A stretch of 16,350 nt of DNA from a virus: IMG/VR virus record IMGVR_UViG_3300029911_000461; one strand, written 5' to 3'. The translations under genes were made by a program, and so were the position numbers. The notes under the pieces were generated by a model. It was not told the DNA's origin and ran no database searches. It saw only the letters and a program-made list of their open reading frames with translations. Of this stretch, positions 1,704 through 12,948 are shown piece by piece. The first letter of the stretch is position 1. Each line of letters begins with the position of its first letter.

Positions 1704-2081
1704 ATGAGTACCGAAGAAAAGTGTCTCCATCTAGCCATTACCGACGAAGGTGTCTGCACCGGGTGTGGTTTGGATGTCAACAGCGAAGAGTTCGACCAGA
1801 GTCTCCCACCCGCTCCTGACCCATTAGGGCTGGGGGACATTATGGGGATTATCCACCTCGCCACCCAAACTGCTGAGGAGTACACCAAGCTGATTAAGAA
1901 TAATGCAGACCCTAAACACCCAGAGAAGCCCCGTCTTCGCCTCGTGGCTGGGGTGCTCATCCGGTTGCCCGATACGGCATTCTGGAGCACAGTGCTGCTT
2001 CCCTCTTTCCTAACCGCTCGAACTCTCGGCTATCGGGGGGACTACGAGAGGTGGAAGACCATCTGCAAAAAATTTCTATAG
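1704..2081 (+). CDS. Small hypothetical protein (~125 aa) with a CxxC motif (GVCTGCG)
   Basis: ORF-track ORF 1695..2081 begins at TTG. The first ATG is 1704 (MSTEEK...). SD is weak. The only + strand ORF between the terminator and the next promoter. Confidence 0.45.
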   Translation: MSTEEKCLHLAITDEGVCTGCGLDVNSEEFDQSLPPAPDPLGLGDIMGIIHLATQTAEEYTKLIKNNADPKHPEKPRLRLVAGVLIRLPDTAFWSTVLLPSFLTARTLGYRGDYERWKTICKKFL

Positions 2082-2107
2082 ACAATAGGCAAAGAGGCTG
2101 GTATCTT
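2079..2107 (+). promoter_or_regulatory. Promoter, member of the recurring family: TAGACA (2079-2084), 17 nt spacer, GGTATCTTA with -10 TATCTT at 2102-2107
   Basis: Same architecture and spacing as the three CCGGTATACTGT promoters. -35 hexamer is identical to two of them. Positioned ~30 nt upstream of the SD AGGTGG and ATG 2139. The -10 is a variant (TATCTT rather than TATACT). Confidence 0.5.
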
Positions 2108-2138
2108 AAATACAACGCACATTCGAAAGGTGGGAAGT

Positions 2139-2429
2139 ATGAACAGAGAGATGCTAATACAAGAAGTTTGTAACGAGATGAAAGCTGCTTTGCGCGGGCT
2201 GGCCATCCGTGTCGAACGGGAGGCGCTAGAGAAGGACAGGGAGCGCACCACCGCGCTGGAGGATGTGCTGACGGAGTTGGTTCTTGACATGGATCATCTC
2301 GGCAAAAGCTCTGCTGCAAAACGGAAAGCCGAGAAGCTGCTACAGGCGGCGGAGGAGTGCCCCCAATCCCCCTCGACAATCCGCAGGGACGCCAGGTGGC
2401 GCGCCAGGCCGCGGAAGAGGGCATTGTGA
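2139..2429 (+). CDS. Coiled-coil protein (96 aa as annotated), probably the N-terminal part of a longer protein that continues in the -1 frame
   Basis: ORF 2130..2429. The ATG at 2139 is preceded by AAGGTGGGA. Sequence is helical (EKLLQAAEE) until ~2357, then the frame-0 translation turns junk-like (CPQSPSTIRRDARWRARPRKRAL). Frame 2 is open from 2288 and reads protein-like from ~2400. Confidence 0.55.
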   Translation: MNREMLIQEVCNEMKAALRGLAIRVEREALEKDRERTTALEDVLTELVLDMDHLGKSSAAKRKAEKLLQAAEECPQSPSTIRRDARWRARPRKRAL

Positions 2430-3049
2430 CTAGCGACAACCGAGAGCTAACGATACAAAGTGTTAATCCTCACGCGAACTATCTTATGGACGGGGAATTC
2501 TGTATTGTTACAGGGTCTAAAGAGTTCGTAGAGGTCACAAAGAAGCGAATCGAGAATTACGCCGCCAATTGCGTCGCCCAAAAGGACGTTGAAATTCTCG
2601 CTCTCCGCACAGCGTTTAACAAGTTTGCATTGAATGTGATGGTTGCAGCCATAGAAGGCGTCGCCGATGCAGCCATAGTGAAGCAGGCTATCTATACCGA
2701 GCATACTTCGTTGGATGCGGTACGAACGCTTGCCGAGAAGCACAAATCTCTCCGCGCCCGGGTTGCCGAGCTGGAGGAGGCGCTAAGAAAGATAGCTGGG
2801 ATTCCAATTGGAGAATACGGGTCTGATGCCGACTACGAGGAAGAGCCGAAGGCCATTGACGGTGTGCCGGAGTTCGCCAATCGCGAAGAGCTCGAAGCCT
2901 TCCTCGCCAAGATGGAGGAGGAGATGCGCGAGGCCGCCAAGAAATTCGAATTCGAGCGCGCGGCCAAGATGCGCGATCTCATCCGCGAACTGCGATTGGA
3001 GAGAGATCGAAGAGGCAAGAGGACTAGCCGAAGCTGCGCTGACCAATAG
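2357..3049 (+). CDS. UVR-domain protein (C-terminal UvrB/UvrC-type interaction motif). 5' end uncertain, likely fused to the upstream ORF or starting at ATG 2486
   Basis: C-terminus EFANREELEAFLAKMEEEMREAAKKFEFERAAKMRDLIRELR matches the UvrB C-terminal UVR motif (..LEFEEAAQIRDQLHQLR..). The GTG at 2357 has GGAGGA immediately abutting, with no spacer, so it is an unlikely true start. Confidence 0.6.
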   Translation: MPPIPLDNPQGRQVARQAAEEGIVTSDNRELTIQSVNPHANYLMDGEFCIVTGSKEFVEVTKKRIENYAANCVAQKDVEILALRTAFNKFALNVMVAAIEGVADAAIVKQAIYTEHTSLDAVRTLAEKHKSLRARVAELEEALRKIAGIPIGEYGSDADYEEEPKAIDGVPEFANREELEAFLAKMEEEMREAAKKFEFERAAKMRDLIRELRLERDRRGKRTSRSCADQ

Positions 3050-3081
3050 CCAAAAAAAATCTCTAAAACAATAGCCAAAAA
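3044..3081 (+). repeat. Two identical 13-bp direct repeats CAATAGCCAAAAA (3044-3056 and 3069-3081), 25 bp centre-to-centre
   Basis: Exact match read directly. Copy 1 overlaps the TAG stop of the UVR-domain gene. Copy 2 overlaps the -35 (TAGCCA) of the downstream promoter. Candidate operator sites. Confidence 0.6.
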
Positions 3082-3103
3082 GGTGTCAACCCCGGTATAC
3101 TGT
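3072..3103 (+). promoter_or_regulatory. Promoter, family member: TAGCCA (3072-3077), 18 nt spacer, CCCCGGTATACTGTG with -10 TATACT at 3096-3101
   Basis: Shares the conserved block CCCGGTATACTGT with the promoters at 7201 and 12936. Located ~20 nt upstream of the SD GGAGAGAAG and ATG 3124. Confidence 0.55.
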
Positions 3104-12588: not shown

Positions 12589-12606
12589 TAACGTCTGAAC
12601 ACTTCG

Positions 12607-12636
12607 AGCCGGGGATTAACCTCCCCGGCTTTTTCT
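12607..12636 (+). terminator. Rho-independent terminator
   Basis: Stem AGCCGGGGA (12607-12615), loop TTAACC, stem TCCCCGGCT (12622-12630), then TTTTCT. Lies 19 nt after the MVP-like stop. Confidence 0.85.
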
Positions 12637-12645
12637 AGGAGAAGT

Positions 12646-12882
12646 ATGGCGATATTTTGGTGGTGGCTTTTGGAAGCGGTGATCGCATTTTATTTGTATC
12701 AGAAAGCATGGCGGTATGGCCGGTATGGCAGGGATGTGACTTTGGCTGACGCTCTCCGGTTTGTTTTCCTATCTCTCATCCCTGTCCTTAGCCTTTTCGG
12801 TGCGTTTTTCTTTTTTCTTGATGTATGGTCATATGATGGCAAACTCAAGGTTGTCCTCTGGAAAAAATACAATGACTCATAA
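12646..12882 (+). CDS. Small membrane protein, 78 aa, two predicted TM helices
   Basis: AGGAGAAG at 12637-12644 before ATG 12646. Hydrophobic stretches IFWWWLLEAVIAFYLY and FVFLSLIPVLSLFGAFFFFL. Confidence 0.55.
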   Translation: MAIFWWWLLEAVIAFYLYQKAWRYGRYGRDVTLADALRFVFLSLIPVLSLFGAFFFFLDVWSYDGKLKVVLWKKYNDS

Positions 12883-12917
12883 ATGGCGTTCATTGCTCCG
12901 CGTTTGAAAATTAATGT

Positions 12918-12948
12918 TAGACAAACCCGGTGAGTCCCGGTATACTGT
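12918..12948 (+). promoter_or_regulatory. Promoter, family member: TAGACA (12918-12923), 17 nt spacer, TCCCGGTATACTGTAA with -10 TATACT at 12941-12946
   Basis: Conserved block plus identical -35. SD GGAGGGA at 12953-12959 and ATG 12967 lie downstream. Confidence 0.6.

Follow-up and report, generated by a model that had tools for sequence, protein, structure and literature searches.

A 16,350-nt stretch of viral DNA (IMG/VR record IMGVR_UViG_3300029911_000461; the whole stretch is called the window here) carries four copies of a short repeated element, S1 to S4, that look like promoters of the sigma-70 type. With a probability of roughly 0.7 we read these sites as copies of one promoter cassette that is recognized by a sigma-70-family holoenzyme, most likely the one carrying the primary sigma factor of the host. 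RNA polymerase binding, the identity of the sigma factor, promoter strength and timing are deduced from the sequence. A first-pass annotation of the window had described four sites of shared architecture, 20–30 nt ahead of start codons. Its coordinates and sequences are exact, and the distance measured from the end of the −10 hexamer is 20–31 nt.

Predicted promoter sites in the window

The four sites, two weaker members of the family and a partial duplication next to S2 are as follows:

S1, 2079..2107, + strand: −35 box TAGACA 2079-2084, 17-nt spacer ending TGG, −10 hexamer TATCTT 2102-2107
S2, 3072..3101, + strand: −35 box TAGCCA 3072-3077, 18-nt spacer ending CCCCGG, −10 hexamer TATACT 3096-3101
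S3, 7182..7211, + strand: −35 box TAGACA 7182-7187, 18-nt spacer ending CCCCGG, −10 hexamer TATACT 7206-7211
S4, 12918..12946, + strand: −35 box TAGACA 12918-12923, 17-nt spacer ending TCCCGG, −10 hexamer TATACT 12941-12946
Decayed family member, 8593..8621, + strand: AAGCCA 8593-8598, 17 nt, GATACT 8616-8621; precedes the ATP-grasp gene 8647-9471
Additional related promoter, 1670..1706, + strand: TACCCA 1670-1675, 17 nt, TATTGT 1693-1698, 5 nt, ATG 1704
First copy of the 13-mer CAATAGCCAAAAA, 3044..3056, + strand: contains the stop codon TAG 3047-3049 of the open reading frame (ORF) 2357-3049

S1–S4 lie on the coding strand at gene ends, in short gaps ahead of start codons: 31, 22, 24 and 20 nt separate the end of the −10 hexamer from the start codon in S1, S2, S3 and S4, respectively. 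A Shine–Dalgarno (SD) sequence of the (A)GGAG type begins only 6–9 nt past the −10 hexamer in S2–S4, or after 5–6 nt in the alignment of the family, and is followed by an A-rich stretch and ATG. Transcription starts are predicted near 2114 (S1), 3108 (S2), 7218 (S3) and 12953 (S4). With a start ~7 nt past the −10 hexamer, the S2 and S4 leaders would begin exactly at the SD sequence (G3108 of GGAGAG and G12953 of GGAGGG) and the S3 leader 2 nt before it (A7218; SD AAGGAG 7220-7225). The upstream gene ends in or close to each site. In S1 (ORF 1704-2081) and S3 (ORF 6864-7184) the TAG of the −35 box is itself the stop codon of the upstream ORF, and in S2 and S4 the upstream stop codon lies 25 nt and 36 nt upstream, respectively. 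The same overlap of TAG and stop codon is seen in an ortholog (L134 9200-9202). The 13-mer CAATAGCCAAAAA is repeated 25 nt downstream of its first copy (3069-3081), and this second copy forms the S2 −35 box; on direct reading no −10 hexamer follows the first copy.

Enrichment and matrix scores

The combination TAGACA-N16-19-TATACT was observed twice in the window (0.00 expected, 200 shuffles) and CCGGTATACTGTAA with at most one mismatch three times (0.01 expected), with all copies on the + strand. In order to avoid circularity, a two-block weight matrix was trained on 12 sites that all lie outside the window, some in relatives and some in the flanking DNA of this phage. S2 (29.3 bits), S4 (28.3 bits) and S3 (28.3 bits) are the three best matches in the window, compared to a maximum of 17.3 bits over 100 Markov shuffles and a mean of the maxima of 12.1 bits. 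This ranking, together with conservation at orthologous positions (see below), bears out the proposal of the first-pass annotation that the sites form one bipartite, sigma-70-like promoter family. A repeat finder independently recovered the family (repeats D2 and D5), from CTAAAA upstream of the −35 box through the SD sequence, and GTATACT is among the five most over-represented coding-strand 7-mers of the close relatives (13 observed, 2.9 expected).

The degenerate copy that had been noted ahead of the ATP-grasp gene scores 17.9 bits, just over the null maximum, and has in addition the −35-like AAGCCA, which had been overlooked; its GATACT has lost the T at −12 and no longer reads TAnnnT. S1 scores 13.6 bits, within the null range, yet relatives also have a promoter at the S1 position. 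The heptamer TAG(A/C)CAA is over-represented in the window in general (12 observed, 2.8 expected), and seven of its copies lie off promoters, on both strands and inside genes. This excess and the score of S1 would suit a resemblance that arose by chance or through coding or compositional bias, devoid of function. However, the shuffle and matrix statistics exclude chance for S2–S4, and conservation at orthologous sites combined with leaderless geometry could not be produced by composition. Chance is thus refuted for S2–S4 and, for the family, we give this explanation almost no weight.

Architecture of the cassette

Aligned on the −10 hexamer, members of the family show a −35 box TAG(A/C)CA, mostly continued by AA, and a spacer of 17 or, more often, 18 nt that turns C/G-rich and ends G-G or C-G. 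The 22 nt upstream of the −35 box contain on average 70% A+T (14 sites) compared to 48% for the loci, which would correspond to the A/T tract of an UP-like element. T at −12, A at −11 and T at −7 (TAnnnT) are present in all four sites, as TATACT in S2–S4 and as TATCTT in S1. Matches to the sigma-70 consensus amount to 10 of 12 positions in S3 and S4 and to 9 of 12 in S1 and S2. For the −35 box alone, TAGACA agrees with TTGACA at five of six positions and TAGCCA at four of six, at a spacing of 17–18 nt and with a clade-wide A at position 2.

Conservation had been claimed to reach beyond the −10 hexamer, to CCGG upstream and TGTAA downstream. The upstream part stands in a narrower form. CCGG occupies the extended −10 position (−17 to −13), where S2–S4 carry C-G-G at −15 to −13: the G at −14 is present and the T at −15 is absent, so the motif is not TGn. 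Across the relatives only the G at −13/−14 is kept, in a CGG, TGG or GTG ahead of the hexamer; L151, L152, L153 and L157 have TGG and thus a genuine extended −10 motif. As the G is general, we interpret CCGG as the local form of an extended −10 element that is TGG in relatives. The downstream TGTAA did not hold up: it is confined to the closest copies, and the relatives do not conserve it.

In the mechanism that we propose, sigma region 2 would read TATACT, region 3 would contact the G at −14 and region 4 would read TAGACA, which is one mismatch away from TTGACA, while the C-terminal domains of the alpha subunits may contact the A/T tract in an UP-like manner. Transcription would start ~7 nt past the −10 hexamer and yield a leader of just 14–18 nt, beginning at or just before the SD sequence. 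A promoter for a T7-like single-subunit RNA polymerase was also considered and discarded, since conservation is bipartite with a variable spacer and does not form one ~20-nt block (−17 to +6).

Probable orthologous promoters and leaderless genes in relatives

Relatives were collected by a Ku search and by scanning metagenomes with an alignment for p488, the 488-aa protein encoded in the window, which yielded at least 30 loci; a Ku-based search of IMG/VR returned nothing. The proteins of the relatives are 35–60% identical to those of the window and gene order is conserved. Promoters occur at the same three places, namely before rIIA, before Ku and after the homolog of the small ORF p126 (the place of S1):

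Before rIIA, L140: TAGCTG-18-CCGGTATACTG
Before rIIA, L142: TGTTCA-18-CCCGTATACTGTG
Before rIIA, L152: TACCCG-18-TGGTATAAT
Before rIIA, L146/L156 and L147/L149: GGTGTATAGT; −10 region of L156 GTGTATAGT
Before rIIA, L153: TAGTAT, then the rIIA start codon after 6 nt
Before Ku, L134: TAGCCA-18-GAGTATATT
Before Ku, L157: TAGCGA-18-TGGTATAAT
Before Ku, L153: TACCCA-18-TGGTAGAAT
Before Ku, L140: TATCCA-18-AGGTATACT, then the Ku start codon after 6 nt (leaderless)
After the p126 homolog, L134: TAGCCA-18-TATACT-6-ATG
After the p126 homolog, L140: promoter present
After the p126 homolog, L152, L157 and L154: TATAAT or TACTAT, 6 nt, ATG

The Ku gene of L140, which encodes 323 aa, and the rIIA gene of L153, whose 880-aa product aligns from residue 1, have their start codons 5–6 nt past the −10 hexamer. 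The same geometry is found for conserved ORFs of 83–131 aa in L134, L151, L152, L154, L157, L160 and L161, and besides Ku and rIIA it applies to at least nine conserved ORFs in relatives. The leaderless sites include L140 17657-17695, L153 12930-12969, L134 9200-9238, L152 12640-12682, L157 13090-13129 and L154 3180-3217. Leaderless bacterial genes are recognized by a −10 box ~10 nt before the start codon (PMC3160421). The short distance in the relatives therefore argues that TATACT is a −10 hexamer and that transcription would start ~7 nt downstream of it. The start position named as a check by the first-pass annotation is in this way obtained indirectly, and the leaderless geometry is the best evidence available for it.

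Judged from the distance between −10 hexamer and start codon, leaderless expression is widespread in the clade, whereas the orthologs in the window have SD leaders instead. One gene of the window, 1704-2081, probably has a leaderless start after TATTGT 1693-1698, as suggested by its geometry and by the many leaderless relatives. The corresponding candidate (1670-1698), which the first-pass annotation had not listed, has a low matrix score of 10.7 bits and adjoins the terminator 1599-1633 on its 3′ side.

The −10 region exists in house versions: TGGTATAAT or TGGTATTAT in relatives of 53–55% G+C and GTGTATAGT or GGTATACT in relatives of 63% G+C. The latter have repeated promoter cassettes of their own, whose −35 region contains an AAATCC motif (L145 290-335 and 1480-1530, L146 14860-14905, L147 13260-13305, L149 8085-8130); AAATCCCTGGCCTAGGCGTGTAGATTGGTGTATAYTGTAGGTGG is found twice in L145.

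The unusual −35 box

We characterized the −35 region of the clade with 44 candidate promoters that were picked solely by a G-preceded −10 hexamer and a downstream gene start, ignoring the −35 box. TA opens the hexamer at a spacing of 17 nt in 9 of the 44 and at 18 nt in 13 (22 in total), compared to 0–5 at other offsets, and TTG is found at neither spacing (0/44). As TA is enriched only at these two spacings and TTG is absent, the unusual −35 box is a genuine trait of the clade, tied to a specific position. The earlier description of the box as a distinctive TAGACA, different from TTGACA, is thus well founded. The box is missing in the relatives of 63% G+C, which have their own upstream motif. 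The DNA 6 kb upstream of the window contains a variant TTGACA-18-TAATAT whose spacer starts similarly (AATTCCCGG). Sites of the form TAGACA/TAGCCA-N-CGGTATACT that have the look of ordinary promoters are spread over many bacterial phyla; one, for example, precedes a tRNA in an Eremiobacterota genome, and others in Clostridia precede SD-ATG. Both observations fit recognition by a normal primary sigma factor.

The first-pass annotation had suggested a host sigma-70 with a phage-specific cofactor, or a phage sigma-like factor. In such a scenario the host sigma would read the −10 hexamer and a phage-encoded factor, either a replacement sigma or an AsiA/MotA-like pair, would read TAG(A/C)CA, and the family would be a middle-type, phage-dependent class. 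The box is conserved in the clade at a fixed distance and is never TTG, which makes a phage specificity factor possible; it also persists in relatives of 50–55% G+C that probably have different hosts. Furthermore, rIIA and rIIB of T4 have middle promoters that depend on MotA and carry a phage box in place of the −35 element (PMC2988021). On the other hand, TAG(A/C)CA sits at the canonical −35 distance of 17–18 nt, compared to 11–13 nt for the MotA box, and TAGACA differs from TTGACA at a single position. The same phage has the TTGACA variant with the same spacer start, the high-G+C relatives keep the −10 hexamer yet have no box, and the ordinary-looking sites in many bacterial phyla carry TAGACA or TAGCCA as well. 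Pfam or PHROG scans of the genes in the readable flanks, which amount to ~190 kb from the clade and cover only a minor fraction of these genomes of 100–450 kb, detected no domain of a sigma factor or RNA polymerase and none resembling AsiA or MotA; no sigma or RNA polymerase domain was present among 80 ORFs of relatives. The suggestion of a phage factor has no direct support, and we consider it rather unlikely. It is equally doubtful that the clade-wide box TA(G/C)(A/C)CA is a site for a phage-encoded substitute of sigma region 4 or a sigma-appropriation factor instead of a degenerate TTGACA.

Recognition by the host's primary sigma has points against it as well. In addition to the absence of TTG from all 44 promoters, phage promoters that depend on host sigma would be expected to stay near TTGACA, unless the sigma of this host prefers otherwise, and in this phage the T at −15 of the extended −10 element is replaced by C. 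Only part of each genome was read, which leaves room for a phage sigma factor. A search of 185,579 reference genomes returned no relative of p488, and a motif scan of the same genomes gave 117 matches that are spread over many phyla and single out no clear taxon.

A literature search on TAGACA/TATACT promoters yielded nothing relevant. Scanning IMG/VR for CCGGTATACTGTAA gave 119 single matches, mostly chance, and a properly spaced −35 box accompanies CCGGTATACTGTAA only in L055 and in canonical TTGACA promoters of L088 and L099. A stricter scan returned two contigs: L133 is a genuine look-alike and originates from the same peat site, whereas L132, with 31% G+C, is probably a chance match. The cassettes of L055 (4381-4410 and 4967-4996) and L133 (1302-1331) are near-perfect and consist of TAGCCA or TAGACA, 18 nt and CCCGGTATACT or CCCCGTATACT. 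Neither L055 nor L133 shows tblastx similarity to the phage in the parts read, and they are therefore unusable as orthologs. They may come from elsewhere in related genomes or belong to unrelated phages that infect the same host.

Near-identity of S2, S3 and S4

S2, S3 and S4 are nearly identical across ~40 nt. Most likely this reflects homogenisation of an optimised cassette within the genome, because the near-identity exceeds the needs of sigma binding and because each lineage keeps a house version of its own (CGGTATACT, TGGTATAAT/TATTAT or GTGTATAGT).

The long repeat could also mean that it is mainly a recombination or mobility module, comparable to the promoter-early stem-loop (PeSL) cassettes of T4-type phages, or an operator that overlaps a promoter, with promoter activity being secondary. 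The stop codon of the upstream gene inside or beside the cassette is a property of PeSLs (PMC2839356), and the same cassette in L055 and L133, which have no detectable protein similarity to the phage, would fit a mobile element. A candidate operator may be seen in the shared GGTAC/GGTAT ~10 nt apart in the spacer and in the palindrome GTATAC; a GTAy element recurs 9–11 nt upstream of GTATACT in many members. However, the palindrome is imperfect outside GTATAC, and the four cassettes have no common stable stem-loop: the fold z-scores are +0.99, -2.04, +0.37 and +0.48 and the structures differ. Rfam gave no family match in the window either. The sites occupy orthologous, syntenic positions in the relatives and are not variable junctions, and population contigs that are 99.6–100% identical show no rearrangements at the sites. 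We consider a primary role in recombination or as operator very unlikely and retain the reading as promoters. The population variants are too similar for selection on the motif to be demonstrable from them.

Predicted transcription units in the window

All recognisable genes of the window are on the + strand:

113-1579, + strand: unknown 488-aa protein (p488)
1704-2081, + strand: small ORF (125 aa as called by JGI; p126)
2139-2429, + strand: small ORF
2357-3049, + strand: protein with UVR motif
3124-5532, + strand: rIIA
5525-6757, + strand: rIIB
6864-7184, + strand: small ORF
7236-8222, + strand: Ku-like protein
Between the Ku-like and R2K ATP-grasp genes, + strand: 81-aa ORF
8647-9471, + strand: R2K ATP-grasp protein
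9570-9998, + strand: PTH2-like protein
10129-12588, + strand: major-vault-protein-like (MVP-like) protein, Pfam MVP_shoulder and Vault_3
Between the MVP-like gene and 12967-13692, + strand: 78-aa ORF
12967-13692 and 13703-14290, + strand: two unknown proteins
Last gene, + strand, running past the window end: tail-fibre-like protein

Three candidate or predicted terminators accompany them:

1599..1633, + strand: intrinsic terminator from the terminator scan, after gene 113-1579, ending the preceding unit
6797..6828, + strand: hairpin CCGGGAGCC/GGCTCCCGG followed by TTTATTTT, after rIIB; found by direct reading, not in the terminator scan
12607..12635, + strand: hairpin AGCCGGGGA/TCCCCGGCT followed by TTTTT, after the MVP-like gene; found by direct reading, not in the scan

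S1 is predicted to drive 2139-2429 and 2357-3049, S2 to drive rIIA and rIIB, and S3 to drive the Ku-like gene. The hairpin at 6797..6828 is likely the terminator of the S2 unit. The predicted S4 unit would comprise 12967-13692, 13703-14290 and the genes after them with no terminator between, a run that extends to the tail-fibre-like gene. As the other promoters precede rIIA/rIIB, Ku and small ORFs, the single temporal class suggested by the first-pass annotation is no more than a possibility. For the MVP-like gene a different promoter type had been noted, and indeed no family match was found upstream of it; there are only weak sigma-70-like candidates (TTGCAC 10040-10045, 17 nt, TATTGT 10063-10068). 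The gene is kept in a relative with 56% identity (L134 12799-15414), and in both the window and L134 it is preceded by a ~60-nt leader with a shared CCGCAG(G/T)T motif and no family promoter.

Source phage and host

The window had no match among 50,697 phage records (INPHARED collection, megablast), while contigs of JGI peat and bog metagenomes and other assemblies contain the same or nearly the same sequence. The 10 kb upstream of the window contain at least eight tRNA genes, and some relatives are on contigs of 96–456 kb; from this we infer that the window is part of a large, uncultured phage. Contig L120 covers the region just 5′ of the window (L120 1-7510) with eight tRNA genes (two each for Arg, Asn and Lys, one each for Gln and Met) and further tRNA-like 3′ ends that ARAGORN did not call, one of which is directly followed on its 3′ side by a TGTGGTATACT box (L120 73-83). 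At L120 4150-5039, 5–6 kb upstream of the window start, there are at least six copies of a ~40-nt element GTTACATCCCCGGAAAGTCTCGGGGTTCGATTGAAA(GATTGAAA) that sits between tRNA genes and small ORFs and is composed of a hairpin CCCCGG-AAAGTCT-CGGGG and a repeated GATTGAAA tail. The flanks of relatives (L153, L156, L157 and others) encode ADP-ribosylglycohydrolase (three ORFs) and RNA 2′-phosphotransferase (Tpt1/KptA), as well as a class I Trp/Tyr tRNA synthetase domain, an amino-acid kinase and methionine-aminopeptidase-like M24 peptidases.

Chloroflexota account for 12 of the 117 reference-genome matches, a possible excess; four of the five Ktedonobacteria matches represent one orthologous locus, and we make no host call from them. 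This locus, from the metagenome-assembled genomes L195, L242, L257 and L279, carries TAGACAAA-N12-CGGTATACT, followed by a conserved leader of ~230 nt and a conserved ORF. The leader has no Rfam match and may be an undescribed cis-regulatory RNA. The leaderless genes of the clade imply that its hosts must translate leaderless mRNAs, which narrows the search for them: Actinobacteria, Deinococcus-Thermus, Acidobacteria or Deltaproteobacteria would fit as host, which is suggestive only.

For the uncultured peat and soil phages of this clade, with their rIIA/rIIB, Ku and MVP-like genes, the cassette can serve as a promoter model. It sets the limits of transcription units in the window and predicts transcript 5′ ends for peat metatranscriptomes, and its non-canonical −35 box is a testable handle on the reliance on unmodified host polymerase. 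If a phage factor did read the −35 box, the family would be a new phage-specific promoter class in uncultured soil phages that use leaderless mRNAs widely.

Comparison with known promoter systems

The closest counterparts to be compared are the early promoters of T4, which combine UP element, −35, TGn and −10 with extra conserved positions (Hinton 2010, PMC2988021). The family resembles them in its many copies in one large phage genome, its placement before non-structural genes, its series of A/T-rich tract, −35 box, extended −10 element and −10 hexamer with conservation beyond the hexamers, and, as far as deduced here, its reading by a host sigma-70-type holoenzyme. It differs in the −35 box TAG(A/C)CA, the extended −10 CGG in place of TGn, the dominant spacer of 18 nt and leaders that are extremely short or absent, and it is known from sequence alone. 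The phage itself has rIIA/rIIB in common with T4 and otherwise belongs to an unrelated uncultured peat and soil clade with contigs of up to 456 kb.

T4 middle promoters share a good −10 hexamer and a non-canonical upstream box before rII genes. The MotA box, however, has a consensus around TGCTT, is centred at −30 and lies 11–13 nt from the −10 hexamer (PMC2988021), so that TAG(A/C)CA at 17–18 nt is not a MotA box. A homolog of AsiA or MotA was likewise not seen in the general scans of the readable flanks.

PeSLs (Arbiol et al. 2010, PMC2839356) are also repeated intergenic cassettes in which an upstream stop codon in an A/T-rich stretch is followed by a sigma-70-like −35/−10 pair, an SD sequence and a start codon. 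In contrast to them, the family has no conserved stem-loop inside, its terminator hairpins are separated from the promoters by small ORFs, and there is no shuffling and there are no breakpoints at the sites, distant relatives keeping the promoters in synteny. Identity with PeSLs was rejected, given the folding results and the lack of breakpoints.

Extended −10 promoters drive leaderless mRNAs in Actinobacteria and Deinococcus-Thermus and, less often, in Acidobacteria (Zheng et al. 2011, PMC3160421). The relatives are similar in having TGGTATAAT or TGGTATTAT 5–6 nt before ATG or GTG, and the window has a probable case at 1693-1706. S1–S4 differ from these systems by their SD leaders, and a link to a host phylum is only suggestive. 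Taken together, the family adds no new type of regulatory element: it is a repeated sigma-70-type phage promoter cassette of an ordinary kind, with a modestly unusual −35 box and very short or absent leaders.

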